Below, one piece after another: positions 967 through 37,419 of a stretch of DNA of 64,000 bases. Under the pieces are notes generated by a model, which worked only from the letters and a program-made list of their open reading frames with translations, made no database searches and had not been told where the DNA came from. This stretch comes from Patescibacteria group bacterium (GTDB taxonomy: Bacteria; Patescibacteriota; Patescibacteriia; 2-01-FULL-39-33). Numbering within the stretch: position 1 is the stretch's first letter; each line of letters begins with the position of its first letter. The stretch covers positions 693-64,692 of the forward strand of contig JBAZQS010000002.1 of assembly GCA_041645075.1 (NCBI GenBank), given 5' to 3'. The translations under genes were made by a program, and so were the position numbers.

Positions 967-970
967 TATT

Positions 971-2170: not shown

Positions 2171-2206
2171 TCTATCGTGTTATAATTAAAAAACAAAATA
2201 GGTATT

Positions 2207-2965: not shown

Positions 2966-2997
2966 GGTTTGCGTCAGCAAACCCTACACAGAGCATT

Positions 2998-3651
2998 TTA
3001 TATCTCCTTATACTGAATTACCACGAATTGACCACATGGCTCATCTTCTGGAAAGAAACCAGGAATGATCCAAAGAGTTTTGGCTCCGTTTTTTATATAG
3101 AAGCCGAGAACTGGGTCTTTGGATAACATTAATTCATCCGGCAATGGCGCTTTCCCCTCTAAGTGAGCTGTTATCGCATCATGTATTTCTTGATTTTTTA
3201 AAACCCTTTCCTGCTGAAATTCTGAGCTTCCGTTAAAAGATGGACATCTGCTGTCTCCTACAATGTAGGACATTCCATCTTCTTTTGCTTTTTTGATAGC
3301 TCCCTCAATTAGATATTTTGCCGCGTAACCGTTTCTATGTTCTGGCACAATGCCTAAACTGTGAACAAAAGCAGTGTTTGGATTTTCATCATGTGGGACT
3401 TCAGCATACATTTTTAATGTTTTAGGAAAGTTTTCATAATCATTTGGTGAAAAATTGGCGTATCTTAGGGCTATTGTGCCAATCAATTTTTCACCAATAA
3501 AAGCGCCAAGAAATATGTGATTCATTTCCAAGCATATTCTGATGTTTTTTTCAGTAATTTGGATTGTTGGTATAAATGCTCTTTTTTCAACATCCATTAT
3601 TTGAGTAATATTTTCTATACTCAATTGGATTACAGAAATTAAACTTTTCAT
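2998..3651 (-). CDS. GNAT-family N-acetyltransferase (probable)
   Basis: HRNGYAAKYL resembles the acetyl-CoA-binding R-x-x-G-x-A motif. Start placed at MKSLIS (3651) after an AGGAGG-like RBS; the longer track ORF (to 3822) lacks an RBS. Confidence 0.5.
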   Translation of the reverse strand: MKSLISVIQLSIENITQIMDVEKRAFIPTIQITEKNIRICLEMNHIFLGAFIGEKLIGTIALRYANFSPNDYENFPKTLKMYAEVPHDENPNTAFVHSLGIVPEHRNGYAAKYLIEGAIKKAKEDGMSYIVGDSRCPSFNGSSEFQQERVLKNQEIHDAITAHLEGKAPLPDELMLSKDPVLGFYIKNGAKTLWIIPGFFPEDEPCGQFVVIQYKEI

Positions 3652-3756
3652 TTTTCCTCCTTTTTTCAATAAAATGGTAAAATTCAATATAATTTGATAG
3701 ATTGTTAATGGACTATTTTGCTTAATATATAATATTAATTTAATTTTGTCAATAGT

Positions 3757-9801: not shown

Positions 9802-11910
9802 ATGCCCGATGGCTCGAATCCGTTAAATTCAAATCAAGAAAATCAAAATATGGATTTACCCTTAAACCCAAAACCAAGTAAAGATAATTTAAAAAAATTG
9901 AATTTTTTTTCTAATTATCCAGCCAATAAAGACAACGGCAGCCAAGGCAAAAAAGGGTCCGCCAGCCGGCGGATTAGATTTTTTAGAAAAGAAGTCAGCA
10001 CCATGCAAGACGACATCGCTAACTTAATCGCCAGCAAAAATCGTAAGGCCGGTAAAAAAAATGGCGTATCAAACCAGCGCCGGGATATTCAAAGGAATTT
10101 AACCGAGGTCTATACGGACGGCGACGGCAAAATTCCCGATTTAACCAAATTAGAAAGAATTCAGCGGCCGCTCTGGAAAACCGTTTTGTATGTTTTAATC
10201 GCGGTCTTAGCTGTTTTACTTGTGGCGGCGATTGCCGGTTTTTACTTTTTCAATAATTTAAATAATCAGGATGCCTTTACCAATGAGAAAGTGGCTTTAA
10301 AAATTGAAACGCCGATCGCCATTGTTTCCGGCCAGGAAATGGTTTATACCATCACCATCACCAATAAGGAAAAAGTCAATTTATATAATGCCGAATTGGA
10401 ACTTTTTTATCCTGATAATTTTGAATATGTCTCGGCCGAGCCGGTCGCCCTGGGCGATAAGAAAAATACTTGGGATTTTGCGGTTATTAAAACCGGGGAA
10501 ACCCAGAAAATCCAATTAACCGGAAAAATTTTAGCGCCCCTCAATTCCACCCAAACCATCAAGGGCACGTTAAATTTTAAGCCCTCTAATTTAAACGCGA
10601 CCTTCAAGCAGGAGGCCATTGTTGATGTCGTGGTCTCGGCTTCAAATATTAGTTTGGATGTTACGGGTCCGGAAAAGACCTTAGCCAACCAGAAAGTGGA
10701 ATATGTTATAAAATATAAAAATACCGGCCAAGACGATTTATCCGACTTACAGTTGGTGGCGGAGTATCCGGACGGATTTGTTTTTAATTCTTCCGACCCC
10801 GAGCCCCAAAACGATAATGGCAATAATAATGTGTGGGCGATAAAGGCCTTAAAACAAAATGCGGAAGGGCAATTGAAAATAAAAGGAGATTATTCCGCGG
10901 TCCAAACCGGCGGCAACCGCGATTTCAAAGTTCGCGTTCAATTAAAAAAAGATAATGATTATTATCCGCAAAGCGAAACGTCTTTCGTGACCACGATTAT
11001 TAAAGACCAATTATCTTTGCAGTTGATTATTAACGGTTCGGCCGAAGACCAGCCGATTAATTTTGATGACCTGCTTGTTTATTCTTTGAGTTTTAAAAAT
11101 ACCGGACAGGAAGAACTGAAAGACATAAAAATTTTCGCTAATATGAATTCGCAGATTTTGGATTGGAATACTTTAAAAGACGACCGTCGCGGTTCAAGAT
11201 CGCAGAATTCCATTGTTTGGACGGGCAAAGAAGCGCCCAAATTGTTGAAATTGGCGCCGGGCGAAGAGGGCCAGATTAACTGGAGCATTAGAGTCAAGGA
11301 TTCATCGGTCATTAATGATAAAAATGTAAATAAATTCAATGTAGAGAGTTATATTGAAGGCCGGGCCAGTCAAAGCGGCGAGGCCAGCGGCGAATCAATA
11401 GTAAAAAGCAAAACCGTGGTTAATGCCATAAATTCCGATTTGGGCTTAAATGCTTACGCGCGTTATTATGATGAAGATAATATGGCCTTGGGCGCGGGCC
11501 CGATTCAGCCAACCGTTGGGGAAAAATCCAGTTATAATATCAAATTGGAATTAGCCAATAATTTGCATGATGTTAAGGATTTGCTGGTGGTGGCAACTTT
11601 GCCGAAAGGCGCGGAGTGGGCCGGCCAAGAAACACACACGGCCGGGGATTTGAATTTTAATCAGCAAGCAAAAAAGATAACCTGGACGATTTCTCGTCTC
11701 GCTAAATCAGCCAATAAGGTGGCTGCGACATTTAATGTCGGCCTTAACCCTGGCGATGATGATTTCGGCAAGGTCTTAATTTTAATTTCGGAAATTCAAT
11801 TGACGGGCAAAGACGCGGAAACCGGAGCCGATATCAGCAAGTCATTAAAAGCCATCACCACTTCTTTTGATGACCCGATTTTAGGTCAGGTGAGCGGGAT
11901 AGTGAAATAA
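9802..11910 (+). CDS. Surface protein with DUF11-type repeats, N-terminal TM anchor
   Basis: Repeated segments such as YTITITNKEKVNLYNAELELFYPDNFEYVSAEP and YVIKYKNTGQDDLSDLQLVAEYPDGFVFNSSDP. Confidence 0.6.
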   Translation: MPDGSNPLNSNQENQNMDLPLNPKPSKDNLKKLNFFSNYPANKDNGSQGKKGSASRRIRFFRKEVSTMQDDIANLIASKNRKAGKKNGVSNQRRDIQRNLTEVYTDGDGKIPDLTKLERIQRPLWKTVLYVLIAVLAVLLVAAIAGFYFFNNLNNQDAFTNEKVALKIETPIAIVSGQEMVYTITITNKEKVNLYNAELELFYPDNFEYVSAEPVALGDKKNTWDFAVIKTGETQKIQLTGKILAPLNSTQTIKGTLNFKPSNLNATFKQEAIVDVVVSASNISLDVTGPEKTLANQKVEYVIKYKNTGQDDLSDLQLVAEYPDGFVFNSSDPEPQNDNGNNNVWAIKALKQNAEGQLKIKGDYSAVQTGGNRDFKVRVQLKKDNDYYPQSETSFVTTIIKDQLSLQLIINGSAEDQPINFDDLLVYSLSFKNTGQEELKDIKIFANMNSQILDWNTLKDDRRGSRSQNSIVWTGKEAPKLLKLAPGEEGQINWSIRVKDSSVINDKNVNKFNVESYIEGRASQSGEASGESIVKSKTVVNAINSDLGLNAYARYYDEDNMALGAGPIQPTVGEKSSYNIKLELANNLHDVKDLLVVATLPKGAEWAGQETHTAGDLNFNQQAKKITWTISRLAKSANKVAATFNVGLNPGDDDFGKVLILISEIQLTGKDAETGADISKSLKAITTSFDDPILGQVSGIVK

Positions 11911-18522: not shown

Positions 18523-18599
18523 GCGCCTATAGCTCAGTCTGGTAGAGCAACAGCCTTTTAAGCTGATGGTCGCAGGTTCAAATCCTGCTGGGCGCACCA
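18523..18599 (+). tRNA. tRNA-Lys (anticodon TTT), CCA encoded
   Basis: Cloverleaf by hand: acceptor GCGCCTA/TGGGCGC, anticodon loop CTTTTAA, T-loop TTCAAAT. Confidence 0.85.
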
Positions 18600-18842: not shown

Positions 18843-19472
18843 GTGGCGGCAGGCGGTAAAGATCGATTAGATCGCTTGGATCGAGCGGTCGGCAAATCAT
18901 TCAAGTTGATTTGGGGAAAACTCCAGCGCCTTGATCGCTGGGGCGAAAGACAATGGCGGGAATATAGAAATTTTTGGATTCGCAACATCTGGCACGGCGG
19001 CAGCAAACAGCTGACCAAGCCAAGAACGGGCAACCGATTTTGGGATTTCCTGCAAGGCCGATTTTATGATCTTTGCCGTTTTCTGGATTGGCTGGACACC
19101 ATTAGTTATTTCCGCGGCCGAATTTATCAGGCCAAGGCCTGCCGAGTAAGAAGCAAGGCGGAGAAAAAGATCGCCAATTATTTTACAGATCACGGCGTTA
19201 AATTCCAGTATGAAAAAAGGCTTTACCTCGGCCCAAGGTCATCCCGGCCATTTCGTCCAGATTTTTATCTTAGCGATTATGGTGTTTATGTGGAATACTG
19301 GGGCCTGGCAGACAGTGACCCGGATTACGACAGAAGACATCGTGTCAAGTTGGCTGCATACCATAAGCACAAGATTCCGGTTATTTCGATTTACCCGCGT
19401 CAACTCGGTAACCTGGAAAGAATTTTCCCCCAGCTTTTTCGAGAGATAACGGGCAGGGATTTTCCTGCCTAA
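18843..19472 (+). CDS. Hypothetical protein with a possible restriction-endonuclease-like (PD-(D/E)xK) C-terminal segment; GTG start
   Basis: AGGAGG RBS 8 nt upstream of the GTG. The pattern AEKKIANYF...RPDFYL...VYVEYWG resembles E...PD...E-x nuclease cores. GC-rich. Confidence 0.45.
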   Translation: MAAGGKDRLDRLDRAVGKSFKLIWGKLQRLDRWGERQWREYRNFWIRNIWHGGSKQLTKPRTGNRFWDFLQGRFYDLCRFLDWLDTISYFRGRIYQAKACRVRSKAEKKIANYFTDHGVKFQYEKRLYLGPRSSRPFRPDFYLSDYGVYVEYWGLADSDPDYDRRHRVKLAAYHKHKIPVISIYPRQLGNLERIFPQLFREITGRDFPA

Positions 19473-19605: not shown

Positions 19606-20547
19606 ATGATGAAGGTTCTCGTTACCATTGGCGCCATCATCCTGCTGGTGCTTATCACTCTGCCGTGGTCGCGCGACTACTTCAAACAGAGCCGCAACAA
19701 CGCCAATAACGCGTTTCGCGATCGGGTTAGTATCGAACAGAAAATCGCCGCTGCGAAGGAAGAGCTCGGGAAAGCCCAGGCTTATGTGACCGAGCAGTAT
19801 GCCAAGGCCATCGGGGGCAAACGCATGTTGGCCGAACAAGAAGCGGCTCTGGACGGCAAAAAGGGGGAATTGGGCGTGAAACAGCCCATTTTCCTACGTG
19901 CTTCGGAGTGGATAGAAAAGTACAAGCCAGGCGACACCTTGTCGCTCGGCCCTCAGACCTTTTCTTACGCCGAAGTGTGCACCGACGCTTCCAATCGAGC
20001 TAATGCGATTAAAGACCTGAAAGCCACCGTTAAGATCCTGAGCCAGGGCAGTGACAGGCTGCGCAACACCATCAACGACAGTGAAGCCAACGCCAAAGAA
20101 GCATTGCGTCAGATCGCTAAAAGGGAAGGCGAGCTTCAGGCTCAAGAAATCGCCTTGAGAACCTGGGAAATAATCCAGGCAAATGAGGCCGTGTGTAAAG
20201 GCATTGCCTTTAATGGCAAGATGCCATTTAATACGCGGCATCTCCAGGCGATTGATGAGGCGATGGACAAAATGAAGGCCTCCATAGAAACTTCAGCCTG
20301 GGTTAAGACCAATTCAGGCGGCATTCCTTATGAAGGACCTCAACCATCAAATCAGAATGAGCTGGAAAACATCAAGGCGACTCGCCAGATGATTACCGGC
20401 GTGGTCCCGACTCCGGAAGCGACTTCCGAACCGATGTCGCCGGCCGAAGCGGCCAGCGAAGCGCTTAGCCAGTTGCCCGAATCGGCCCTGAAGCAACCCG
20501 CCAGCAAACCGGCGATTGCCACCCCGGCCGCGACCCCTGTTCATTAA
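19606..20547 (+). CDS. Membrane-anchored coiled-coil protein (hypothetical)
   Basis: N-terminal TM, long helical region, Pro/Ala-rich C-terminus. GGAGG RBS. GC-rich with unusual codon use. Confidence 0.55.
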   Translation: MMKVLVTIGAIILLVLITLPWSRDYFKQSRNNANNAFRDRVSIEQKIAAAKEELGKAQAYVTEQYAKAIGGKRMLAEQEAALDGKKGELGVKQPIFLRASEWIEKYKPGDTLSLGPQTFSYAEVCTDASNRANAIKDLKATVKILSQGSDRLRNTINDSEANAKEALRQIAKREGELQAQEIALRTWEIIQANEAVCKGIAFNGKMPFNTRHLQAIDEAMDKMKASIETSAWVKTNSGGIPYEGPQPSNQNELENIKATRQMITGVVPTPEATSEPMSPAEAASEALSQLPESALKQPASKPAIATPAATPVH

Positions 20548-20802: not shown

Positions 20803-21189
20803 AAGTTTATGATTTAATCTGTGAGCTTTTGCCGATTCGCCAACAGGCGAAAAAGGCAAAAGCGAACACTGATCAAAAGAGGATTCCAAAGGGGCGCCCC
20901 CTTTGGTCGGTGGGCGGGATCTAAATAACCCGCCCACCGAAACCTACTTTATTTTTAGTTTTAGTTAAAATATGAGATTGACAAAGGTTTATTTTAGTCC
21001 TACGATATTATCAGCGGCACCTTGACAATTAAATAAAATAAAGCATTAAATCAGTTAGATATAGCTAAAATTGGAGAAAGGAACGCGGTTTTGTTTGGGC
21101 GGTAAAAATCTCTAAATTAAAGTTTGATTTTTGGTTATCAACCAGATGACTCTTTAATGATACAAAGAACGAAAAAGGAGGAAAGGAAA

Positions 21190-23256
21190 ATGAAGGGTGT
21201 TAAGGGATTCGCGTTTAAAGCTCTGGGAGCTTTAGTTTTGGTTTTTGTCTTGTGCGGTTATTCCTGTAAAGGCAAGGTTAAGCCGGAGTCGCTGTTGACA
21301 CCAAGTTCGGTCGGTCCGGTGGCCATACCCCAAGAGGAAATGCCCAATATGGATAATCCGACCCAATGCCTAACCAATGAGAATGGCATTCGTCAGAAGG
21401 CGATTATTACTCGCCGCGGCGTTTCTTGCAGCCAAGAGCCGGGCGGCGTGGAAGATGGTTTTGATTTGGATTATTTCCATTCTTATTTCGTCTTTGAAAC
21501 CGTAGAGGTAAACGGCATCATTTATTATCGGGTTGGCATTACCCCCCGGCGGGCAAATATTAAGGGCTGGGTGTCCGGCGCCAAAGTCCAATTATGGGAT
21601 ACAGCGATCGGCGCCCGGTACGCGCGTCCGGAAAGTGACGATCCGGAAAAGAAAGTCAGCCAGATTCTGCCCCCGCTTTACGTGTATGGGGAAAAGGAAG
21701 ATTCAATCAAGGCAATTAAAAGCGAGTCGGTTGAACCGATTGCCCAGACCCTCTATGACTACAAGTACAAAACCCAAATGGCTTGGCCCATAACTAAGAA
21801 AGAAGAATTTCCTTTCCAGGGCAAGACCTATGAGGTTTTTCAGATCGCTTTCTTGAGTGAATACCCGCAGGGCGGCGATATTAACGCGCCCCCGCCGGTA
21901 ATTACGCCCACGGTTGTGAGAACGGAAAAGCAGAAACAAGTGAAAGAAGGCGTTAAGACGATTGATGTCGTTTTTGTGATTGACACCACGCTTTCCACGA
22001 CGCCGTATATTGAAGCCGTCAAAGAGACGATCCGGAAAATTATGAACAGCTTGAATGGTATTAGCGCCGGTTCATTTAAACCGGACATCGCTTTCGGGCT
22101 GGTTGAATACCGCGATTTCGTCGACGGGCTTTACTTTAATGATAATGGCGCACAGAAGGTTTATCGGCTGTTCCAATTAACTAAGGATGCCCAGGCGTTT
22201 CTTAACCGCATTAATATTGTTAAGTCCGCTGGCAAATCCAGTGAGGGCTGGCAGGAAGCGGTTCTTGATGGTTTAAAAGCGGGTTTGATGGAAATCAGTT
22301 GGAGCAATGATTATTCGGAAAGGATATTGATTCTGATCGGAGATAATTCCGGCCACTCATCGGATTCGCCGGAAATTAAGACGGGCAGTAAAAGTCCGAA
22401 TAATATTTCGGTTGGCGATATTACCGTTTTAGCCAGTCGTAACCGGGCCACTATTTTTTCTTTGTTGGTTAAAAACCAAGCCGAGGCGGCCGAAGTGGCT
22501 CGTCACCTTAATCAGTTTACCGAGTTTGCGGAAAAAACCGGCGGTAAATGTTTTCCTTTGGAAGTGGTCGGCGAGATGGTTGGTTTGGTTTCTAACCGTA
22601 TTATTGACCCTAAAATCCAGGAAGCGGAAATCGGTACGGAAGTGGTGACGGCTAAACTTCGTGGCAGCTCGGAATCAGCCATTAAGGAAAAAGTCGGCGA
22701 GAAGCAATATGTGGAAGTGATGAAATGGCTTAGCAAGCGCAACATCACTGACCGCGATTTAAAACCGGGGGAAATTTTCTTTTCTACCGGTTGGGTGGTT
22801 TCTGAAGCGGGCGGCGTTAAGATTCTGGCCAAAGAGGCCTATATGGCCCGTTCGGAATTGAATCTGCTTTTGACCAATCTTCAGTCACTCAAAGATTTCT
22901 TAGCCAATCCTAAGGCCTCGGTTTCACTGATTGCCGCTGCATATTTTCCTCGTGTTCGAGAGAATATGCCGAATGTTGTTCGAGAGAATATGCCGAATTT
23001 CCTCGGCGAGGAGATTTCCTTGCCCATGAATGTTTGGCTGCAAATTAAGGGCATTCCCTTGTCCGAATACAGCATCTTGAAATTCAATAAGTCAATATTG
23101 GAACAGATGCCGGAGGAGACCAGGCGGACGATCAAACAACGGATCACGACTCAATGCCTGCCGGCGTTGATGAATGATTATAATGATTTTATCCGCTTTT
23201 CCAATCAGGATGATATAAACAGCTTTGGCTGGGTGAGGGAAAAATACCTGCCCTAA
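21190..23256 (+). CDS. Secreted/lipoprotein-like VWA domain protein
   Basis: Signal peptide MKGVKGFAFKALGALVLVFVLCGYSC. DVVFVIDTTLST (MIDAS-like) and ILILIGDNSGHS segments typical of vWA. RBS AAAGGAGG. Confidence 0.65.
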   Translation: MKGVKGFAFKALGALVLVFVLCGYSCKGKVKPESLLTPSSVGPVAIPQEEMPNMDNPTQCLTNENGIRQKAIITRRGVSCSQEPGGVEDGFDLDYFHSYFVFETVEVNGIIYYRVGITPRRANIKGWVSGAKVQLWDTAIGARYARPESDDPEKKVSQILPPLYVYGEKEDSIKAIKSESVEPIAQTLYDYKYKTQMAWPITKKEEFPFQGKTYEVFQIAFLSEYPQGGDINAPPPVITPTVVRTEKQKQVKEGVKTIDVVFVIDTTLSTTPYIEAVKETIRKIMNSLNGISAGSFKPDIAFGLVEYRDFVDGLYFNDNGAQKVYRLFQLTKDAQAFLNRINIVKSAGKSSEGWQEAVLDGLKAGLMEISWSNDYSERILILIGDNSGHSSDSPEIKTGSKSPNNISVGDITVLASRNRATIFSLLVKNQAEAAEVARHLNQFTEFAEKTGGKCFPLEVVGEMVGLVSNRIIDPKIQEAEIGTEVVTAKLRGSSESAIKEKVGEKQYVEVMKWLSKRNITDRDLKPGEIFFSTGWVVSEAGGVKILAKEAYMARSELNLLLTNLQSLKDFLANPKASVSLIAAAYFPRVRENMPNVVRENMPNFLGEEISLPMNVWLQIKGIPLSEYSILKFNKSILEQMPEETRRTIKQRITTQCLPALMNDYNDFIRFSNQDDINSFGWVREKYLP
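22954..23001 (+). repeat. 24-nt in-frame tandem duplication inside the VWA gene (VRENMPNV/VRENMPNF)
   Basis: gttcgagagaatatgccgaatgtt occurs twice. Confidence 0.8.
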
Positions 23257-23328: not shown

Positions 23329-24114
23329 ATGAAACTCATGGAACCAGTGGTAGAGAGAGAAACAATGAAAAAAAAACTAACATGGTATCCGACTTTTGTC
23401 TTGCAAAACGTTAGTAAATTTTTTACCGTCGGCGGAGAAACAATTAAAGCGGTTGGTAATGCCTCGGTTTCAATTCCTTCTGGATGTATTACTGGGATTA
23501 TAGGCGAAAACGGTTCCGGCAAAACCACTTTATTGCATTTAATGGGCGGGCTCTATAAACCCGACCGTGGCCGGATTTATTACTATCATCCTGAGTACAA
23601 ACGTTATTTCCTCATACCGTATAACAACAAAAAATATATGCAGTATTTTTTGCGCCATCAGGTCGCTTGGATTTTTCAGAAATTAAATCTGATTTCACAT
23701 TTGACGGTTTGGCAAAATATCGTATTGCCGCTTTTCTTGAAAGGACAGTCCTATAAAAAAGAGGAGATTATCAAGCTTTTAAAAATACTGCGCCTGATCG
23801 ATCCGGAAAGAAATATTAATTTAATGAATAAGCGGCCGGAACAGCTTTCCAGCGGCGAGCAGCAGCGCGTAGCCATTGCTCGAGCTTTGGTGGCCAGGCC
23901 GCAGGTGATTTTGGCCGATGAGCCGACCGGCAACCTTGACTTGCGAAACCGCGATGTTTTTATGGAGATTCTTAAAGCGGCAAACCGAGATTACGGTATT
24001 ACAGTCGTTTTAATTACGCAGGAAGTTAGCTTGGTGAAGAAGTACTGCCATGCCTGTATTCTGTGTGAAAAATCCAATCAAGGAAATATTTGCGGTCAGC
24101 TGCAATGGCTTTAA
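23329..24114 (+). CDS. ABC transporter ATP-binding protein (MacB/FtsE/LolD-like)
   Basis: Walker [10 protein letters not shown], signature [15 protein letters not shown], Walker [12 protein letters not shown]. Start may be 23338 or 23353. Confidence 0.85.
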
Positions 24115-24149: not shown

Positions 24150-27100
24150 ATGAGAGGGTCAGATGATGGTATTTATGTTAGACCAATTAAACCGAAAGAT
24201 CGCGATAAAGAGCCGGGAGCGATTAAAACATTGCGGTATACTATTTCCTATATCCGCTTTAACTTTTTTGCTTTCTTGCTTAATATTTTGACGATTGGCA
24301 TTGCGGGAATTTCGATTATGGCCTTTGGCTATCTGGCTTATGCCGGCTATCAGGAAGCGCGGAGTAAACTGGAAAATAGTCAGACCAAAAAAATTATCGT
24401 CAGCTGTGTGGCTGATGAACGGCTTGATGAGACCAAGCGGTTTAATGCCAAGAAAATTGAAGAAATGAAAAAATTGCCTTGGGTGGTTGTCGCTTTTGAA
24501 CGGGTCTGCCAGAATGTTTATTTAAATATCTCCGGCGGCGACCCAAAATTGTCTTACATTGAAGGCACGATTCCCCATGACCCAGAAATTGACCCATTGT
24601 CAATGGAATGGGGCGGCGGTGTCAGTTCGCAGGACTCGGAAGAAATCGTCGTTACCTCATCGCTTTTAGATGAGCTTATCCGGCCGGCAATGGGGCGCGC
24701 TGGCGAATCAAGGGCTTTGCGACCGGAGGTGATTCGTTTGACGGTCAGAAGAACGGCCGGCAACGAAGAAAAAGATTTCCGCCGCGAGTACCAATTGGTC
24801 GGTGTCTTGAACAGCAAAATCAAGAAGGCCTTTATTCCGTTACGGCAAGCCAAATATCTGGAAATGTGGTGCGGCAGCAAGATTGACGACATGCCCGTGG
24901 TAGGCGGCAAAATTTCTCAACCGGAGATTGAAGTCAAAACCGGCCGCCTGTATGTTTCCAGTAATATCAGCGGAGAGACCCTGGATCAGGCCAAGAAGCA
25001 TTTCCAAATTGACCTAAAAGAAATTTTTTCTTATCGGGAGCCGGTTATCGGCGACATCGGCGAGATGAGAATTTTCCGAAAAGATAATCAGGCATTTTAT
25101 AACGCGGATATCGCCAAATTACAGAGCTTATTGCCAAATGATGTTAATATTTTTTCGGGCAATCAGGTTAAGGCGACATTTCGACTGGAACAGCGTGAAG
25201 TAAAAGGAGCAATCCTGCAGGCATTTTCCCTAAACGATCCACGTTTACGGAATTTAAAAATGATGGACAACAAAGGCATTGATACGGCCATCACCTCTCT
25301 TTACAGCGTGGTTATTTCCAAAGATCTCGCCAGCCGGCATTTGCCTTATGGCCTTGAGTCCCAGCCGGATTTAGTAGTGGAAATCGGACCGTTTCCGGTT
25401 AGCCTGAAAATTGTCGGCGCTTCCGAGGGCTATATTAACGATACGCCTTTTGACGCCTTATGCAGCCTTGATACTTTCAATTGTTTAAATCTGAACGTGG
25501 AATTAAAGAAGTTTTGCTTGGTGGTCATGACCAATCGGGCGACCGCTAAGCGGCTGAAAAACGGCGACTATCCAGTGAAAAAGGGCCAAACAGCCAAGAC
25601 CTTTCCGATTATTGAAAAGAAAATCAAAACTTGGGATTCCGACCCAAGTTCTAAGACGGTTCATTCTGCTGCCGGCGCGGATCGGAGAGATTCGGCCACC
25701 GCCCAAATAAATTCTTCTAACTCGTCTTTTGATGCGGGAGATTATTGCGCGATTGCCGCTCTGGAAGGCGATCGCGGCTCAATCAGTAAATTCATTAAAG
25801 ATCATTTCAACGACCCAAAGGTTGAAGTCATTGAACTCTCGGTTGTTGGCAACTGCAAGGTCTTAAGCGGCGACAAGACCAGAGAAGCAGAAATCGCTTT
25901 TTGCAATCCGGAAGAAATCAGTCATAGTCAATTGCCTTGGGCCTACCGGAGTTATCCTCTGGAAAGTGGCTCTGGTCTGGCAAGCGAAGAGGATTTTCCG
26001 TCGGATTATTCAATTGGGATAGGCGATACCCGCCTTGATTTGGTAAAAATTGACCAGGTCTTTCCGCGCGGGTACATTCTAGTCGGTCAAAAAAAGATGT
26101 CGGTTTTACTTCCCGGTCTGCAGAAACTTGAGGCAAAAAAAAGTACTGACGGAGAATATTTACCCGGCTTCCTTGATGTAACCATTAATAATCCGGTTAG
26201 TTATGAAAACGTGAAAGCGGCGATTGAGGGGCAGGGGCTTATCGTTAAAGAAGTCCGGGTGCCAAAAAACATCCAGGTGACTTGTTACCAATTCAGTTCG
26301 CTTCAGCCAGATGGGAAAATCAGCCGCCAATTAATTTCTTCTTTAAAGGCCGATAGAACATTTCTTGATGTTTGCCCCGAGATTAAAATTGAAGCGGCAA
26401 TCGGCGGCCTGCCACTGGAAAATAAATTTTCTTTTATCGGCAGTTACGTTGATGACCGGATCAAAACAAACATACCGGTTAAACTTGGCGGTTGGCTTAC
26501 CGGCTCGTCGCCTAATGAAGTGATGTTGCCGGAAAAAATGCTGGCAAACACCTCTAAGGATCCGAAAAATTTGATTGGTGAAAGCGTGACTCTGATATTT
26601 GAACGCCAAGTCAAGAGGTCCTACGGCGAGCCAACACTAGACGTTAAATGCGCTGTGGCCGGAATCACCACTGACGATCATGGCTATCTGCCCTTGGATC
26701 TGGTGAAAAGGGCTTACCTCTGGCAAACCGGTCGTCTGCCCTACAACGAGCGCAGTGGCACCTTCGTCAGCTCGGAAAACCTTTACGATAAATCCGGCCA
26801 CGAGTCGTGCAAGATCTACGTCAGAAATATTGCCGACGTTCGGCCGGCCGTTAACTACTTGCGCCAAGACCTTGGCTATGATACGGAAGATTATCTAAAA
26901 GATCAAGAACGAATTCGCGAGCTGGGCCGGATTTTGACTTTCTTGGTGATGATGATTGTTGTTGGCAACGTGATTTCCGGCATTCTTAATGTCGTGATCA
27001 CCACCTTAATGAACACCAAAACCAGGATTTATGAAATCGGCATCTTGCGGGCTCATGGCGCCAGCAATCGGTTGATTAAACGGATTTTTTTCCAACTCGG

Positions 27101-27362
27101 CTTAATGATGGGATTCGCCTCCTTTGCGGTTGCTTTTGCGGCCGCACCGCTGGTAATCGAACTGATCGCTTTTTCAATCAAGAAGGCCTTCTCAGTTGAG
27201 CTGACCAGGATTATGTCGGTCCCGTTTATCAGTTTTGATTACTGGTGGCTGCATTTGCTTGGACTGTTAATTACGGTTTTGTTCTGTGTCTTCGGCGTAT
27301 TTTGGTCAGCGCTTTTGGCCTGCAAAACGCCAATTGTTAAGGCCTTAATTTCCGGAAAATAA
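24150..27362 (+). CDS. MacB/FtsX-type ABC permease with a giant (~800 aa) extracytoplasmic domain
   Basis: N-terminal TM, a long soluble domain, and a C-terminal FtsX-like 3-TM module containing IYEIGILRAHGAS. AAGGGAGG RBS. Confidence 0.7.
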   Translation: MRGSDDGIYVRPIKPKDRDKEPGAIKTLRYTISYIRFNFFAFLLNILTIGIAGISIMAFGYLAYAGYQEARSKLENSQTKKIIVSCVADERLDETKRFNAKKIEEMKKLPWVVVAFERVCQNVYLNISGGDPKLSYIEGTIPHDPEIDPLSMEWGGGVSSQDSEEIVVTSSLLDELIRPAMGRAGESRALRPEVIRLTVRRTAGNEEKDFRREYQLVGVLNSKIKKAFIPLRQAKYLEMWCGSKIDDMPVVGGKISQPEIEVKTGRLYVSSNISGETLDQAKKHFQIDLKEIFSYREPVIGDIGEMRIFRKDNQAFYNADIAKLQSLLPNDVNIFSGNQVKATFRLEQREVKGAILQAFSLNDPRLRNLKMMDNKGIDTAITSLYSVVISKDLASRHLPYGLESQPDLVVEIGPFPVSLKIVGASEGYINDTPFDALCSLDTFNCLNLNVELKKFCLVVMTNRATAKRLKNGDYPVKKGQTAKTFPIIEKKIKTWDSDPSSKTVHSAAGADRRDSATAQINSSNSSFDAGDYCAIAALEGDRGSISKFIKDHFNDPKVEVIELSVVGNCKVLSGDKTREAEIAFCNPEEISHSQLPWAYRSYPLESGSGLASEEDFPSDYSIGIGDTRLDLVKIDQVFPRGYILVGQKKMSVLLPGLQKLEAKKSTDGEYLPGFLDVTINNPVSYENVKAAIEGQGLIVKEVRVPKNIQVTCYQFSSLQPDGKISRQLISSLKADRTFLDVCPEIKIEAAIGGLPLENKFSFIGSYVDDRIKTNIPVKLGGWLTGSSPNEVMLPEKMLANTSKDPKNLIGESVTLIFERQVKRSYGEPTLDVKCAVAGITTDDHGYLPLDLVKRAYLWQTGRLPYNERSGTFVSSENLYDKSGHESCKIYVRNIADVRPAVNYLRQDLGYDTEDYLKDQERIRELGRILTFLVMMIVVGNVISGILNVVITTLMNTKTRIYEIGILRAHGASNRLIKRIFFQLGLMMGFASFAVAFAAAPLVIELIAFSIKKAFSVELTRIMSVPFISFDYWWLHLLGLLITVLFCVFGVFWSALLACKTPIVKALISGK

Positions 27363-27374: not shown

Positions 27375-28208
27375 ATGAATCAAGAAGAACATGACCAAAA
27401 CGAAGGATTACCTTCAATTCCAATTAAGACCCCTGAAGCAGAACCCGATCGCGAACCGATTTTGCTTAAACCCATGTTCTCGCCGTTTTTGAGGAAGAGG
27501 CAGAAAAGTTCGTGGTCCGCTTTTCAGATCATCGGTCAGTTGATTATCATCGCCGGTTTTTTCTCGGCGGGCTGGATCGCGCATGATTATCGGTCGCAGC
27601 TGAAACCACTGATTAATAAAATTAATCCGTCGCCCGCGCCAACACCTGAACCGTTTATTGAGTTAAACAAATCGCTGGTTGTGGCCATGCTCTCGGAAAT
27701 CAACGCCGAGCAGAAGCGAGTCAGTGATGATAAATACGGATTGCAAGATAGGATTGACCGGTGCGATTTAACCTGGAAGGTTTTGAGAAATTCCGGTTAC
27801 ACTAAGGATTCAAATGAATGTAAGGGAATCTTCAAAGAAGCCCGGGAGCTTAAGAGGGGTTTGATTCAGAATAATCAACAGCTGGCCAAACTCAATAAAG
27901 CGGCCGATGGCTTGCGCGATGTGCTTCAGGACATTCGTTTGAAGGGCTATGTTATCAATAATCCGAAAACCCAGAAGTTGGTTTCTAATGTTGAGATTGC
28001 TCTGGGCGTCCGCCAGGGTCTTAATGAAGATGGCGGCGGATTAATTTCAGACCGAGATTGGAATGGCGAGGACCCCGACGAATTTATGAAGGGCCTTAAA
28101 AATAGCGGTCTAGAAAAACCGGTTGTCACTCCGTCATCGGTTCCGGTTGCGACCCAGTCGCCGGCTTCAAAAATTCCCGTCGCGGTGCCGATAACCGGGA
28201 ATCAGTAA
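27375..28208 (+). CDS. Hypothetical membrane-anchored protein
   Basis: GGAGGAAG RBS, one TM, Pro-rich C-terminus. Confidence 0.5.
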   Translation: MNQEEHDQNEGLPSIPIKTPEAEPDREPILLKPMFSPFLRKRQKSSWSAFQIIGQLIIIAGFFSAGWIAHDYRSQLKPLINKINPSPAPTPEPFIELNKSLVVAMLSEINAEQKRVSDDKYGLQDRIDRCDLTWKVLRNSGYTKDSNECKGIFKEARELKRGLIQNNQQLAKLNKAADGLRDVLQDIRLKGYVINNPKTQKLVSNVEIALGVRQGLNEDGGGLISDRDWNGEDPDEFMKGLKNSGLEKPVVTPSSVPVATQSPASKIPVAVPITGNQ

Positions 28209-28368
28209 CGTTCTTTTTTGACCGTTCTTTATCAATATCAACAGTCCAGTACTAAAAGTGCTGGACTTTTTATTTATATTTAATGCCTTGACAACCAGGG
28301 TAATTAAGCGTAAATTGAAATGAAACGAATGGTTTTTTGACAATTAATTATTATCAGGAGGAAGATAA

Positions 28369-28824
28369 ATGAGCCGCAGAAAAAGGAAATCAAACTTATT
28401 TCGATTCCCGACCAGTAAGTGGTGGCGTCGCGGCCAAGCCTTAGCCGATTTTTTAGGCGGTATGATTTTTGGCCTGGCGGAACAATTGGCTGGCTGGCTG
28501 ATTAGGTTTTTTAAGTTTTTTGGGCGGGTAATCTATTGGTTAATAATCAAGATTCCGGGTCGTAAGAAGAAAGACACGAGACAAAACGAAATCCAGCCAG
28601 AAAAAAATTTACCGAAAGAAACTGCCAGTCCTTTGGCGGACTGGCCGCCTCAAGCCCAAGAGGCCATTGCCGCCTTAATTTCTTTGGGGGTGGCAAAAGC
28701 AAACGCCGGCCCGGCCATTGCCAAGGCCCGGGCTAACCTTGGGTCAGGCGCTTCAACCCAGGATTTAATTAGAGAAGGTCTGAAATACCGACGCGGAATA
28801 TCGGAGATGGGAGCGGAAAAATGA
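28369..28824 (+). CDS. Small membrane protein with a RuvA domain-III-like (UBA-like) C-terminus
   Basis: AQEAIAALISLGVAKANAGPAIAKA...TQDLIREGLKY resembles the RuvA C-terminal domain. Confidence 0.45.
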   Translation: MSRRKRKSNLFRFPTSKWWRRGQALADFLGGMIFGLAEQLAGWLIRFFKFFGRVIYWLIIKIPGRKKKDTRQNEIQPEKNLPKETASPLADWPPQAQEAIAALISLGVAKANAGPAIAKARANLGSGASTQDLIREGLKYRRGISEMGAEK

Positions 28825-29477
28825 TTGGCGATAAAAATTTTTGGCTTTCAGTTATGATTTTTATAGTTGCTTGGTATTTATGGAAAAGCTTGTTGATGTA
28901 TCCGTTGCGGCTGTTGGTCACTCTACTTCATGAAAGCGGCCACGCCTTAGCCGCGGTTTTGACCGGTGGCGCCACGGAATTTATCAGTGTTGATATTCGT
29001 GGCAATGGCCGCGCGGTAACCAAGGGCGGGATCCGGCTGGTCATTTTAAACGGTGGCTATTTGGGCAGCGTGATTCTTGGCGTTTTTGTCTACCTTCTGC
29101 CTTATGGCCGATTTGGCCGCTATGCCCTAATGATTTTAGCCGCCTTGCTTTTGCTGATTGCCATTTTGTGGATCAGGGACTTTTTTACTATGATTTTTTC
29201 GCTCGGCTTAGGTCTGGGACTGGTTTTAATCAATTTATCGGTCTCCAATTCTTCCGCCATGCTCGTCGCCAAGTTTATCGGTTCTTGCTGTATTCTTTAC
29301 TCGGTGTTAAATATTGATTTCCATTTTCGTTACGGCAGGATGTTCTTTAACCGCCAAACCGACGATCAGGAATTGGCAAAATTAACAAAAATACCTGCCC
29401 GCCTTTGGCAGTTGGTCTGGCTCATTATTTCTCTGGTTATTTTTCTGCTCCTTACCAAGTCCACCCTAATGGAATAG
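28821..29477 (+). CDS. M50B-like integral membrane zinc metallopeptidase
   Basis: HESGHALAAVLTGG HExxH motif in a TM helix. ATGA overlap with the upstream gene. Confidence 0.6.
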   Translation: MIGDKNFWLSVMIFIVAWYLWKSLLMYPLRLLVTLLHESGHALAAVLTGGATEFISVDIRGNGRAVTKGGIRLVILNGGYLGSVILGVFVYLLPYGRFGRYALMILAALLLLIAILWIRDFFTMIFSLGLGLGLVLINLSVSNSSAMLVAKFIGSCCILYSVLNIDFHFRYGRMFFNRQTDDQELAKLTKIPARLWQLVWLIISLVIFLLLTKSTLME

Positions 29478-33105: not shown

Positions 33106-33558
33106 GTGCTGGATAAATGCTATAATATGCTTAATCGCTCACGGCGCAAAAATAAATATCATTTTTCTCGCGTTCAGATAATCATCGCCATTGGCAGTAT
33201 TATTTTGATTTTTTTGATTGTCGGCATTATTAAAGAGAAGATTAACCGCCGCCAAATTGATAATGAAGTTGCCAATTTAGAGAAACAGGTTAAAACATCA
33301 GAAAAGGAAAATCTGGAACTTGGGTCTCTGATTGAAGAATGGCGCGGCGGGAGCCGAGTGGAAAAAGAAGCGCGTCTTAAATTGGGCCTAAAAAAGCCGG
33401 GAGAAAAGGTGGTGATGATTATGAAAGAAACACCCAGCGCCCCCGAGAATATTATTAATAAAAATACCGAGATTATCGGCAATATTATCAAACCAAAGGA
33501 ATTAGAGGGAGCGGCCAATCCCTTAAAATGGTGGCGTTATTTTTTTTCAAAAATATAA
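33106..33558 (+). CDS. Septum formation initiator (FtsB/DivIC-like)
   Basis: TM plus coiled coil, then EKEARLKLGLKKPGEKVV. Confidence 0.65.
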   Translation: MLDKCYNMLNRSRRKNKYHFSRVQIIIAIGSIILIFLIVGIIKEKINRRQIDNEVANLEKQVKTSEKENLELGSLIEEWRGGSRVEKEARLKLGLKKPGEKVVMIMKETPSAPENIINKNTEIIGNIIKPKELEGAANPLKWWRYFFSKI

Positions 33559-34732: not shown

Positions 34733-34739
34733 ATATTTG

Positions 34740-34812
34740 AGCCACCCATCGGATTCGAACCGATGACCTACGCGTTACGAGTGCGTTGCTCTACCAACTG
34801 AGCTAGGGTGGC
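34740..34812 (-). tRNA. tRNA-Thr (anticodon CGT)
   Basis: Reverse complement folds: GCCACCC acceptor, anticodon loop CTCGTAA, T-loop TTCGAAT. Confidence 0.85.
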
Positions 34813-34815
34813 CTA

Positions 34816-34886
34816 AGCGGGATACGGGAGTCGAACCCGTCTTTCTACCTTGGGAAGGTAGCATTAAACCGATTAATTAATCCCGC
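34816..34886 (-). tRNA. tRNA-Gly (anticodon CCC)
   Basis: Reverse complement folds: GCGGGAT acceptor, anticodon stem CTACC/GGTAG with loop TTCCCAA, T-loop TTCGACT. Confidence 0.8.
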
Positions 34887-34925: not shown

Positions 34926-35795
34926 ATGATTTTAAATATTATCTCATCAAAAAACAGCCAAAAGCACGGTTGGAGGCAATTTAAAACAAGTTATTTTGTT
35001 TTTTTTGTGATATTTACGCCATTAATGGCTTTTTTCTTTCTCATAAATCCCGTCCGGGCGGAAAATTTTGTTTTTATCAGGCAGATTGAATATCCCTTGA
35101 ATAAAAATTATATTTTAACCTCGCCGGCCGAGGAAATAACGTTTTCGGTGGCGGCCAACTCCATCGATCAAAATGCGGTGATTAAATTAATGCATTTGGC
35201 CGATCAGAAAAATATCAGCGATTATTTTACCTATTCAGAAAATATTGAACCCGCCAGCGATTTGTACTATTTTGAATTTGTGAATAAGGACGGTTTTCAA
35301 AAAACCAGCTATTCAATCCGGCCGAAAATTACCATCAAATACAAACCGGATAATAAATATAAAGAAATATATTATTACAGCTGGCTGTATTTAAAATTTT
35401 TAAAATTAGATACGATTCGCGATACCATTAATAATACCCTAACTTTTGAAATTCCCGAGCAACAATCGCTTATTTTTGCTTTGTTTGATGAAAAGGAAAT
35501 TGCGGGCAAGGCCTCATGGTATGTCCATAATAAATATAAAAATCAATTAATCGCGGCCAGCGTGGATTTTGCCCAGGACGCGAAGGTAAGAGTCATAAAT
35601 TCCGACAACAACAAAGAAGTTATTGTCACCATAAAGGATTATGGCCCAAAGAAATGTCCCGATTGGACCGAGAAAGAACAAAAAACCATGGGCCCCTGCC
35701 AAGATCGGCTATTGGATTTATCAAAAACCGCTTTCAAAGTTTTGGCGCCGACCAGCTTGGGCATAATAAATGTGAAAGTAATGCCCGCGGAATAA
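34926..35795 (+). CDS. RlpA-like double-psi beta-barrel protein
   Basis: ASWYVHNKYKNQLIAASVDFAQDAKVRVINSDNNKEVIVTIKDYGP matches the RlpA DPBB pattern. Confidence 0.65.
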   Translation: MILNIISSKNSQKHGWRQFKTSYFVFFVIFTPLMAFFFLINPVRAENFVFIRQIEYPLNKNYILTSPAEEITFSVAANSIDQNAVIKLMHLADQKNISDYFTYSENIEPASDLYYFEFVNKDGFQKTSYSIRPKITIKYKPDNKYKEIYYYSWLYLKFLKLDTIRDTINNTLTFEIPEQQSLIFALFDEKEIAGKASWYVHNKYKNQLIAASVDFAQDAKVRVINSDNNKEVIVTIKDYGPKKCPDWTEKEQKTMGPCQDRLLDLSKTAFKVLAPTSLGIINVKVMPAE

Positions 35796-35804: not shown

Positions 35805-36485
35805 ATGATTCATTTAATCAAAGTAACAAAAAAATTTGAGGGCGAGACCGTGGCCCTAAAGGAGGTCGCGCTTCATATTGAGCCCGGCGAGTTTGTTTCT
35901 ATTGTCGGCCAGTCGGGCTCGGGCAAAACCACCATTATCCGCTTATTGATCGCGGAAATCAGGCCGACCGCCGGTAAAATTATTATCGGCGGCTGGGATA
36001 TTACCGATATCAAACGCCGTCAAATTCCCATATTGAGGCGGCAAATCGGCGTAGTATTTCAGGATTTTAAATTATTGCCCAAAAAAACGGTATTTGAAAA
36101 TGTGGCCTTTGCCTTGCAGGTTTCCGGCAGCGCCAAAAGCCGCATCAATAAAATTGTGCCGCAGGTTTTAAAAATCGTGGATTTGGAAGATAAGACGGGC
36201 CGGTATCCGCAAAATTTGTCGGGCGGCGAAAAGCAAAGGGTGGCGATTGCCCGAGCCCTGATTCATCGGCCGAAAATATTATTAGCCGATGAGCCGACCG
36301 GCAATTTAGACGCCTTAAATTCAAAAGATATTATTGATTTGCTTTTGAAAATCAATGATTTCGGCACGACCGTGGTTTTGGTTACCCACAATAAAGATAT
36401 TGTTAATTCGTTAAGAAAACGAGTCATCACTCTTGAGCGCGGCGTCGTTATCCAAGACCAGAAAGTGGGAAAGTATGTTTTATAA
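35805..36485 (+). CDS. ftsE: Cell division ATP-binding protein FtsE
   Basis: [35 protein letters not shown]. Confidence 0.85.
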   Translation: MIHLIKVTKKFEGETVALKEVALHIEPGEFVSIVGQSGSGKTTIIRLLIAEIRPTAGKIIIGGWDITDIKRRQIPILRRQIGVVFQDFKLLPKKTVFENVAFALQVSGSAKSRINKIVPQVLKIVDLEDKTGRYPQNLSGGEKQRVAIARALIHRPKILLADEPTGNLDALNSKDIIDLLLKINDFGTTVVLVTHNKDIVNSLRKRVITLERGVVIQDQKVGKYVL

Positions 36486-36495
36486 ATTATAAACC

Positions 36496-37419
36496 TTGAT
36501 TATGTTATTAGTCGCCATACACCGAAGCGTGCTTTTCGCCCTCCAATCATTTTGGCGAAATTTTTGGCTGTCTCTGGCCACGATTTTTATAATTTTTTTG
36601 GCGTTTGTCTCAATTAATTTTTTAATTTTTCTCAGCGCCGTCTCTGATTCGGCCATAAACGCGGTCAAGGAAAAAATTGACGTGTCAATATATTTCAAGC
36701 CCGATATCAGAGAAAGCAAAATCAACGAAGTCAAATCGCATTTAGAGACCTTGTCCCAGGTAAAAGAGATTACTTATCATTCTTCGGCGCAAAATTTGGA
36801 AAGTTTTACCCAGCGCCACGCCAGTGATGCGGTCATCAGCGATACCTTAAAAGAATTGGCGGGCAATCCGCTGGGCGCCACTTTAATTATTAAGGCGAAA
36901 GAATTATCCGATTATCCCGAGATATTAAAGGCCGTGGACAATCCCGCCTATAATGAATTAATTGAAGAGAAAAATTATGACGACCATCGCGTCGTCATAG
37001 ACCGCATTAACAGCATTACCAACAACATCAGGCGAGGCGGGCTGATTATCAGCTTGATATTTGTGATCATCGCCATTCTCATTGTTTTTAATACCGTAAG
37101 AATCGCGATTTTTACCCATCAAAATGAAATCAGCATTATGAAACTGGTGGGCGCGAGCAATTGGTTTATCCGAGCGCCATTTATATTGGAAAGCATATTT
37201 TCCGGCGTGATTGCCTGTTTATTGGCCGTGGCTTTGGTGTATCCCGTCTTATCGTTCATCCAGCCCCATCTTGCCAATTTTTTTGACGGCGCCGCTTTTG
37301 ATCTGGTCGGCTATTTTAATCAGCGCTTCTTGCTTATTTTCGGCGGCCAGCTCTTGGGAATTATTCTTTTAAATATTATTGCCAGCAGCTTGGCTATTGG
37401 AAAATATTTGAAGGTCTAA
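36496..37419 (+). CDS. ftsX: Cell division permease FtsX
   Basis: MKLVGASNWFIRAPF motif; 4 TM. Confidence 0.85.
   Translation: MIMLLVAIHRSVLFALQSFWRNFWLSLATIFIIFLAFVSINFLIFLSAVSDSAINAVKEKIDVSIYFKPDIRESKINEVKSHLETLSQVKEITYHSSAQNLESFTQRHASDAVISDTLKELAGNPLGATLIIKAKELSDYPEILKAVDNPAYNELIEEKNYDDHRVVIDRINSITNNIRRGGLIISLIFVIIAILIVFNTVRIAIFTHQNEISIMKLVGASNWFIRAPFILESIFSGVIACLLAVALVYPVLSFIQPHLANFFDGAAFDLVGYFNQRFLLIFGGQLLGIILLNIIASSLAIGKYLKV

Follow-up and report, generated by a model that had tools for sequence, protein, structure and literature searches.

The reading frame at 24150-27362 in the DNA analysed here, a 64,000-nucleotide (nt) stretch of contig JBAZQS010000002.1 that we refer to as the window, encodes a giant permease of ATP-binding cassette (ABC) type VII, the superfamily that includes MacB, FtsX and LolCE. 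Its domain between the first two transmembrane (TM) helices is about 860 amino acids (aa) long, and profile comparisons indicate that it contains two paralogous units of the MacB type. The gene belongs to a four-gene cassette whose other products are an ABC ATPase, a probable lipoprotein with a VWA domain and a small bitopic membrane protein. We found this cassette in metagenome-assembled genomes (MAGs) of Planctomycetota as well as in the MAG that supplied the window, which is labelled Patescibacteria at NCBI. We consider it probable, at roughly 60%, that the permease serves as membrane subunit in a type VII ABC system that has not been characterised before, an ATP-driven mechanotransmission complex that would act on extracytoplasmic partners. 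Among ABC proteins, type VII systems are the textbook case of mechanical work done outside the membrane instead of transport. To our knowledge only a handful of their outputs have been described: MacA-TolC efflux, the extraction of lipoproteins, the activation of hydrolases, the extrusion of haem or lipids, and the protection of targets.

Topology and ectodomain of the permease

The permease reading frame on the forward strand is intact and starts with an ATG, preceded by a ribosome-binding site that we judged to be good (AAAGGGAGG, 5-13 nt 5' of the ATG). The NCBI record of the product, MFA4871527.1, which is encoded on a 79-kb contig, carries the generic name 'MAG: FtsX-like permease family protein [Patescibacteria group bacterium]'. 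Hydropathy analysis (Kyte-Doolittle, 19-residue window) identified four hydrophobic segments, at aa 35-65, 924-955, 979-1011 and 1029-1063, and between aa 70 and 900 the profile never exceeded 1.15. An AlphaFold model computed with an alignment of 30 family members placed long helices at 39-76 (TM1 and stalk), 916-958 (stalk and TM2), 973-1014 and 1029-1059. The two methods agree on a 1+3 TM topology, with TM1 separated from a C-terminal three-TM module by one big domain, which is what the original prediction had read from the letters of the sequence. Helices 39-76 (38 residues) and 916-958 (43 residues) are much longer than a bilayer needs, and in the model they are the counterparts of the stalks that TM1 and TM2 usually have in MacB-class proteins. 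Pfam FtsX (PF02687) aligns to aa 935-1061 and scores 34 bits there, above its cut-off of 25.5 bits (E = 3e-8); it also matches all 30 aligned family members; the motif RIYEIGILRAHGAS occupies aa 958-971, in the TM2-TM3 loop. With four hydrophobic segments and one FtsX module, the protein is not of the BceB/YbbP type, which has ten TM helices and two FtsX modules.

The TM1-TM2 loop runs from aa 63 to aa 924 (862 residues), so the earlier estimate of about 800 aa was slightly conservative. We predict that this ectodomain lies outside the cytoplasm because it is homologous to the solved MacB and LolCE structures; lysine and arginine abound in the N-terminus and in the TM2-TM3 loop, and the partner proteins described below appear to be exported. 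None of our results puts the domain in the cytoplasm, an arrangement that had been named as a way in which the original prediction could fail.

AlphaFold applied to the single permease sequence gave an unusable model, with a predicted local distance difference test (pLDDT) score of 35. With the 30-sequence alignment, the mean pLDDT was 82.7 and the predicted template modelling score (pTM) was 0.55, the latter being low, as expected, because the permease is a multidomain chain. Low-confidence stretches were limited to aa 1-16, 185-188, 493-530 and 666-668. A Foldseek search of the PDB with this model returned 51 matches at E <= 0.001, and all of the 50 that were listed are type VII ABC permeases or isolated periplasmic domains of such permeases. 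Together with the Pfam result, these matches bear out the MacB/FtsX assignment made originally. Matches included LolE (E = 1.2e-11) and MacB (1e-9), along with LolC, YtrF, YbbP, a pneumococcal Spr0694-type transporter, HrtB, BceB and FtsX; the isolated domains of LolE, LolC, MacB and YknZ matched with target-normalised template modelling scores (TM-scores) of about 0.45-0.55. A sequence profile search of the PDB ranked YtrF best (1e-24), followed by LolF, LolE, LolC, MacB and FtsX, in every case via the C-terminal module. Nothing significant was found by Foldseek among the viral structures of BFVD, and a weak profile match of the middle of the ectodomain to a secretin (8co1, E = 0.044) was taken as noise.

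The original prediction had reported no recognisable motif in the ectodomain. For plain Pfam searches of the window protein this is correct, as no match was found in the ectodomain even at E <= 10, whether it was scanned whole or as four pieces. It is not correct for profile-profile comparison with hhalign, in which aa ~80-253 and aa ~706-871 align with each other over 161 columns (Prob 98.5%, E = 2e-15). The duplication is visible only at this level; BLASTP of the permease against itself found no internal repeat. TM1 together with the first of these units aligns to MacB-like proteins (Prob 95.7%, E = 9e-9), as does the second unit together with a final beta-alpha-beta element (Prob 82.5%, E = 1e-5), and when whole profiles are compared, aa 756-1068, TM module included, match MacB-like proteins with Prob 99.3%. 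The profile searches and AlphaFold modelling that had been suggested as a check of the domain thus indicate that it holds two paralogous MacB-type periplasmic-core units, in a chain modelled with good confidence. Each unit consists of a beta-alpha-beta element, a beta-rich subdomain and a helix with a conserved tryptophan, which is W240 in unit 1 (LEMW240C) and W858 in unit 2 (YLW858Q). Across the 30-sequence alignment, no residue but W858 is fully invariant.

Further evidence for this anatomy comes from the relatives. Pfam MacB_PCD directly matches six of the 30 family members, the window protein not being among them. In one of the six, P0015, positions 2-178 of the 207 in the Pfam model map to TM1 and unit 1, and the last beta-alpha-beta of the model is unmatched, as would be expected if the C-terminal half of the Porter subdomain lay about 650 residues downstream, just before TM2. 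The region at aa ~875-913 aligns to the end of the MacB periplasmic domain, and from its position in the sequence we presume that it is this C-terminal Porter half; we likewise infer which beta-alpha-beta halves of the ectodomain would pair up. The order of elements is therefore TM1 and stalk, unit 1, about 450 family-specific residues, unit 2, the terminal beta-alpha-beta, and stalk and TM2.

Conservation in the ectodomain peaks at aa ~65-260 and ~700-925 and reaches its minimum at aa ~320-420 and ~540-680. For the middle region (aa ~254-705), Pfam has no model, and hhalign matched it neither to the canonical MacB domain nor to the rest of the permease. The AlphaFold model shows a beta-alpha-beta-beta-alpha-beta-beta stretch at 264-359 and other modules at 386-471 and 532-660. 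A second stretch with this succession of elements lies at aa 670-751, and in both the order is ferredoxin-like. The linker (aa 493-530) is a site of large insertions or deletions in relatives (alignment columns 510-700). We also screened cysteines C86, C241, C438, C456 and C887 as candidates for disulfide bonds; they are partly conserved, and their co-occurrence is not clean.

The permease family and its conserved cassette

We searched 1.84 billion cluster representatives exhaustively with HMMER, using a profile of the ectodomain only. The search matched 83 clusters at E <= 1e-3, of which 62 reached E <= 1e-10 and 15 reached E <= 1e-30. About 45 of the 83 are 970-1,370 aa long, and the shorter ones look like fragments. 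Thirty full-length members are collinear with the query from end to end at 18-33% identity, and in 27 of these the hydropathy profile has the 1+3 TM pattern, with 785-1,008 residues between TM1 and TM2. A word-indexed protein search with the permease returned the query itself and one 1,070-aa homologue, 66% identical, on a Joint Genome Institute (JGI) contig (locus L001) with the same gene order as the window. When the 30-sequence alignment was used instead, the word-indexed search was swamped by generic FtsX proteins and gave no further family members. The family is rare, with 83 clusters among the 1.84 billion representatives, and its members come solely from metagenomes or uncultured organisms. 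High-GC members occur in three species-representative genomes, two of which are labelled as Planctomycetota or Planctomycetaceae MAGs, and another family member neighbours genes typical of Planctomycetes (DUF1501, DUF4058 and an extracytoplasmic function (ECF) sigma factor).

These homologues bear directly on whether the long reading frame is an artefact. A frameshift or an assembly error could have fused a membrane protein at the N-terminal end, unrelated sequence and an FtsX gene, or the protein could be the divisome FtsX enlarged by an insertion peculiar to the lineage. Just one other sequence exceeds 50% identity to the permease, and all family members are metagenomic, as such an artefact might have it. 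However, collinear homologues of 970-1,370 aa are present in many independent assemblies, the two halves of the ectodomain are paralogous, both flanking TM helices in MacB fashion, and AlphaFold is confident along the whole chain save for the 38-residue linker. Because dozens of independent metagenomic sequences share the architecture over its full length, from the 66% identical homologue to distant ones that align end to end, a frameshift fusion, the other failure foreseen for the original prediction, is excluded. The window also contains a canonical FtsE gene and a gene for a 307-aa FtsX (35805-37419), so the giant permease is not the divisome FtsX and belongs to a paralogous system. Its ectodomain is about seven times the size of that of the canonical FtsX encoded 9 kb away. 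The cell-division FtsX models of NCBIfam score only about 20 bits on it (TIGR00439, 20.9 against a cut-off of 255; NF038347, 18.9 against 225), and Pfam FtsX_ECD has no match in it, whole or in pieces. We regard an artefact as effectively refuted.

The gene immediately 5' of the permease encodes the ATPase, and an ATPase gene adjoins the permease in all of the loci compared. Its best NCBIfam matches are FtsE, LolD and the nucleotide-binding domains of bacteriocin exporters, each below the equivalog cut-off, and its Walker A, Q-loop, signature and Walker B motifs are intact. One high-GC family member, P0032 (1,332 aa), has an ABC ATPase fused at its N-terminus in the manner of MacB, which supports the pairing of the ATPase with the permease.

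Upstream of the ATPase gene lies the gene for the VWA protein. Its called start is the ATG at 21190, giving a 688-aa product (P0101); a mechanical open reading frame (ORF) starts at a TTG at 21124. The window protein has a signal sequence and a match to Pfam VWA barely above the cut-off (24.0 bits against 23.8), with weaker matches to TssR_VWA and VWA_4. Other members of the VWA protein family score higher (VWA_4, 39 bits; VWA, 29.9 bits; TssR_VWA, 29.7 bits), and the lipobox cysteine and the residues D287, T289, S291 and D407, of the metal ion-dependent adhesion site (MIDAS) type, are invariant in the family. Against the genes at the same position in distant loci, the protein shows 32-36% identity over about 650-690 aa (E = 7e-112 and 1e-131). 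Identity to relatives is in fact higher for the VWA protein (30-39%) than for the permease (20-33%). A word-indexed search with the VWA-protein alignment gave 10 matches; a genome scan with VWA patterns yielded no confirmed relative. The VWA gene also contains a perfect 24-nt in-frame tandem duplication at 22953-22998 (1.9 copies), which encodes VRENMPNV twice and looks recent because the extra copy is an insertion relative to the homologues.

Directly 3' of the permease gene, in every locus with downstream DNA, is a gene for a small N-anchored protein of like architecture. In the window this bitopic protein has an N-in/C-out orientation, an ectodomain that from its sequence appears helical or coiled-coil-like, and a C-terminal tail rich in proline, serine, threonine and valine. 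It is 55% identical to its counterpart in L001 and 24% identical to that in L002 (E = 5e-12). Identities range from 27% to 39% within the Planctomycete group and from 24% to 55% within the low-GC group, and hhalign links the two groups with Prob 78% and E = 1.8e-5.

The gaps between the four genes, in the order VWA protein, ATPase, permease and bitopic protein, are 72, 35 and 12 nt. This spacing, along with a promoter-like site ahead of the first gene and a terminator-like hairpin behind the last (Table 1), suggests that the genes are co-transcribed. The genes for VWA protein, ATPase and permease occur as a triad at all loci that include upstream DNA (L002, L003, L005/L006, L008, L010 and L011). 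Because the genes flanking the cassette differ among the Planctomycete loci, the conserved unit consists of just these four genes. One further metagenome contig (Ga0335394_10005448; L013, 9001-12681) carries a VWA homologue that is limited to aa ~60-337. Within the next 100 nt permease-like sequence begins, and the two are not separated by a gene for an ABC ATPase; this may be a degraded or rearranged cassette.

Table 1. Coordinates of the permease, its parts, the other cassette genes and further features (window positions unless a locus is named)
Feature	Position	Strand	Basis
Promoter-like site TTGACA, 17 nt, TACGAT, 5' of VWA gene	20978..21006	+	Consensus scan 10/12; pattern match only
VWA protein, ~688 aa, probable lipoprotein with central VWA (MIDAS) domain	21190..23256	+	Pfam VWA, lipobox, synteny
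ABC ATPase of FtsE/LolD/MacB nucleotide-binding domain type, 261 aa	23329..24114	+	Pfam ABC_tran E = 3.7e-32; NCBIfam
Giant type VII ABC permease, 1,070 aa	24150..27362	+	ORF from ATG, Pfam FtsX, hydropathy, AlphaFold, Foldseek
TM1 (aa ~39-62); stalk helix continues to aa 76 in the model	24264..24335	+	Hydropathy, AlphaFold
Ectodomain unit 1 (aa ~80-253): beta-alpha-beta, then Sabre-like subdomain, W240 helix	24387..24908	+	hhalign; MacB_PCD in P0015
Family-specific middle region (aa ~254-705), least conserved part	24909..26264	+	AlphaFold pLDDT mostly 75-90; conservation profile
Disordered Ser/Asp/Ala-rich linker (aa 493-530)	25626..25739	+	pLDDT about 30; alignment gaps/insertions
Ectodomain unit 2 (aa ~706-871): second beta-alpha-beta and Sabre-like subdomain, holds W858	26265..26762	+	hhalign
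Terminal helix and beta-alpha-beta (aa ~875-913) into TM2 stalk	26772..26888	+	AlphaFold H875-882, E886-891, H894-907, E911-913
FtsX three-TM module (aa 925-1070) with cytoplasmic coupling loop RIYEIGILRAHGAS	26922..27362	+	Pfam FtsX; PDB sequence matches LolE, YtrF
Bitopic protein, 277 aa: basic N-terminus, one TM at aa ~49-70, charged ectodomain	27375..28208	+	Sequence, synteny
Strong terminator-like hairpin, 11-bp stem then TTTTATTTAT, 35 nt past bitopic gene	28243..28267	+	Pattern match only
M50B-like metalloprotease region, low-GC clade	28369-29477; L001 4503-5608; L002 7909-9703; L011 17743-19554		
RlpA/DPBB-like protein, just upstream of FtsE	34926-35795		
Canonical FtsE	35805-36485		TIGR02673 277.6 bits against cut-off 264.85
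Canonical FtsX, 307 aa	36496-37419		Pfam FtsX_ECD aa 62-148; TM module from aa 184

Proposed mechanism and alternative explanations

In MacB, LolCDE, FtsEX-EnvC and YbbAP-TesA, ATP binding and hydrolysis cause a motion of the stalk helices that reshapes the periplasmic domains, without a substrate path through the membrane (PMC5985334, PMC7668044, PMC12646458). We propose that the cassette encodes a machine of this kind. Two permease and two ATPase subunits would make up the complex, and no substrate would be carried across the membrane. The binding and hydrolysis of ATP in the cytoplasm would scissor the stalk helices and so move the ectodomains, whose motion would act on the VWA lipoprotein and the bitopic protein; most likely the complex would hold and switch, or position, the VWA lipoprotein. 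The bitopic helical protein may serve as an adaptor, as the coiled coils of EnvC or PcsB do for FtsX, and the insert of about 450 residues together with the duplicated Sabre-like unit might provide an enlarged docking or lever surface. Candidate outputs for such a machine are adhesion, surface-layer assembly or envelope assembly. Because all three of the non-ATPase products have their bulk outside the membrane, an ATP-driven extracytoplasmic machine is the most economical reading of the cassette.

The parallels with known systems extend to this use of partners. FtsEX, working with EnvC, PcsB, CwlO or RipC, passes ATP-driven motion to an extracytoplasmic partner, often via a helical or coiled-coil adaptor and without transport (PMC7668044, PMC6355983, PMC6705773). 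The FtsX ectodomain is only about 100-130 aa long and lacks a substantial Sabre subdomain, whereas the giant permease has two Sabre-like units, and Pfam found no peptidoglycan hydrolase domain in the cassette proteins. YbbAP-TesA of Escherichia coli shows that a type VII system can have an extracytoplasmic protein as its dedicated partner (PMC12646458). However, YbbP (804 aa) has 10 TM helices and two separate periplasmic domains, while in the giant permease both core units lie in one TM1-TM2 loop; YtrF of the Bacillus subtilis YtrEF system, the best PDB profile match, is only 436 aa long; and the cassette partners, a VWA lipoprotein and a bitopic protein, differ from those of YtrEF and YbbAP.

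Several observations weigh against the mechanism as we propose it. Synteny is the sole evidence for a physical link between the ectodomain and the VWA lipoprotein or the bitopic protein. The lipobox is degenerate in the window VWA protein (GYSC) and canonical in its relatives. In the window ATPase, and there only, the H-loop histidine is replaced by glutamine (LITQEV, codon CAG at 24019-24021); the histidine is kept in four relatives (VTHD, VTHE or VTHN), including the closest one, L001. The window enzyme may hydrolyse ATP poorly, or the change may be a population variant or a base-call error. Finally, the assignment of the window contig to Patescibacteria is the submitter's label, with which the gene content (DUF4012, DUF11 and compact housekeeping genes) is compatible without being proof of it.

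The main rival to a mechanotransmission complex is a dedicated Lol-like extractor, in which the complex would pull the acyl chains of the VWA lipoprotein from the cytoplasmic membrane and either pass the protein on to an outer layer or set it free, much as LolCDE handles outer-membrane lipoproteins. LolC, LolE and LolF share with the giant permease the 1+3 TM topology, the C-terminal FtsX module and a stalk-attached periplasmic domain between TM1 and TM2, and LolCDE and LolDF resemble the cassette in combining a separate LolD/FtsE-type ATPase with a lipoprotein partner. The top structural matches of the permease are also LolE and LolC, its top NCBIfam matches are LolE and LolCE, and LolF and LolE come next after YtrF in the PDB profile search; the invariant cassette partner is a lipoprotein, and most of the taxonomically labelled family members are from the diderm Planctomycetota. 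Nevertheless, the NCBIfam LolE and LolCE scores are just 30-33 bits against cut-offs of 362-540, with only the TM module aligned. Lol permeases are about 400-415 aa long with a single periplasmic domain of about 200 aa, as opposed to 860 aa outside the membrane, a duplicated Sabre-containing unit and some 450 extra residues in the giant permease, an ectodomain that has no counterpart in Lol systems. The cassette has one permease gene in place of the LolC/LolE pair, and Pfam scans of the cassette and flanking genes found no LolA/LolB-like carrier in the conserved neighbourhood. The cassette, moreover, also occurs in the window MAG, which by its label belongs to Patescibacteria, and that group is commonly considered to have no outer membrane. 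On this balance we hold a Lol-like extractor to be unlikely.

Efflux, export or sensing in the style of MacAB, BceAB or HrtBA seems to us quite unlikely. Here the ectodomain would, on the outer side of the membrane, capture a peptide, a toxin, a lipid-linked intermediate or a hydrophobic compound; the ligand would be expelled, its target shielded or its presence signalled, and the VWA protein would be an accessory binder. MacB, BceB, HrtB and YbbP are indeed among the significant structural matches. The permease resembles MacB in its Porter/Sabre-type periplasmic core, stalk helices and mechanotransmission class, and P0032 has the ATPase-permease fusion typical of MacB. An M50B-like metalloprotease encoded downstream of the cassette in the low-GC clade could also fit a signalling route. 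On the other hand, that gene is missing from the Planctomycete loci, and the permease has 4 TM helices against 10 in BceB or YbbP. The periplasmic domain of MacB from A. actinomycetemcomitans comprises residues 306-503, about 200 aa, with one Sabre subdomain (347-465) between the two halves of the Porter subdomain (306-346 and 466-503) (PMC5985334). The window ATPase is a separate gene product, unlike the N-terminally fused ATPase of MacB. No MacA-type adaptor (HlyD or membrane fusion protein family) or TolC family match was found among the cassette or flanking genes, and the cassette has no conserved association with genes for a membrane-fusion or adaptor protein, a TolC-like protein, a two-component system or a bacteriocin. 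What is most strongly co-conserved is a protein of 690 aa and not a small-molecule pathway. A role as a defence system was also considered, and it was rejected because the PADLOC models gave merely generic ABC-ATPase matches.

The cassette stands out in two respects. A single TM1-TM2 loop of 800-1,000 residues with two paralogous core units is an architecture absent from the matched type VII structures and from the literature that we searched, and a VWA lipoprotein would be a new kind of obligate partner in place of an adaptor, carrier or hydrolase. Our full-text literature search found no description of an FtsX/MacB protein with a giant ectodomain or of an FtsX-VWA cassette. Very large permeases with an FtsX domain are encoded by some Mollicutes, so size alone may not be unique. 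Were the partner assignment true, it would extend the mechanotransmission principle to adhesion or assembly modules of the MIDAS type, and it would give a function to a cassette conserved in two poorly understood groups, Planctomycetota and Patescibacteria. A bolder version, which we put forward tentatively and think improbable, is that the four genes define an undescribed class of type VII ABC machine. In this class a giant ectodomain with a duplicated core would draw on ATP hydrolysis in the cytoplasm to switch, mechanically and between states, a VWA lipoprotein resembling an integrin I domain, making up an 'inside-out' adhesin or surface-assembly device shared, and possibly exchanged, between Planctomycetota and a lineage of the candidate phyla radiation (CPR)/Patescibacteria. 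The immediate impact is modest because the family is rare and known solely from uncultured organisms.

Other features of the window

Some genes outside the four-gene unit recur near it in part of the family. In the low-GC clade the M50B-like membrane metalloprotease is kept downstream of the cassette, and L002 and L003 have, ahead of it, a gene for a Vps4-like AAA ATPase, which likewise does not occur in the Planctomycete loci. In the window and in L001, the protein encoded before the M50B-like gene is about 150 aa long, matches only the N-terminus of the Vps4-like AAA protein and includes a RuvA_C/UBA-like stretch. A functional link between these genes and the cassette is possible. Upstream of the cassette is a 313-aa ORF (19606-20547) with no Pfam match. 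Its homologue in L002 (10675-11412) lies downstream of the cassette and is 27% identical (E = 2e-27); this ORF may be part of an extended cassette neighbourhood.

The G+C content is 0.43-0.48 over about 16-32 kb of the window, compared with 0.32-0.42 in the approximately 16 kb on either side. Just 5' of the cassette are a tRNA-Lys gene (18523-18599) and a 209-aa ORF (18843-19472) with a sub-threshold match to Phage_endo_I (28.6 bits against 29.1). From composition and gene content, this stretch of higher G+C with its tRNA and phage-like ORF might have been acquired by transfer.

The remaining observations concern genes farther away. Close to the divisome pair, the genes for tRNA-Thr and tRNA-Gly are on the opposite strand at 34739-34886, just upstream of the RlpA/DPBB-like gene, and a DivIC/FtsB-like gene is at 33106-33558. 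At the start of the window, a run of GT4 glycosyltransferase genes and a methyltransferase gene (9-4974) precedes two genes, one at 6009-8834 for a 941-aa protein with DUF4012 and one at 9802-11910 for a 702-aa protein carrying DUF11 repeats. These genes look like a cell-surface or envelope cluster of a kind common in Patescibacteria-like genomes.

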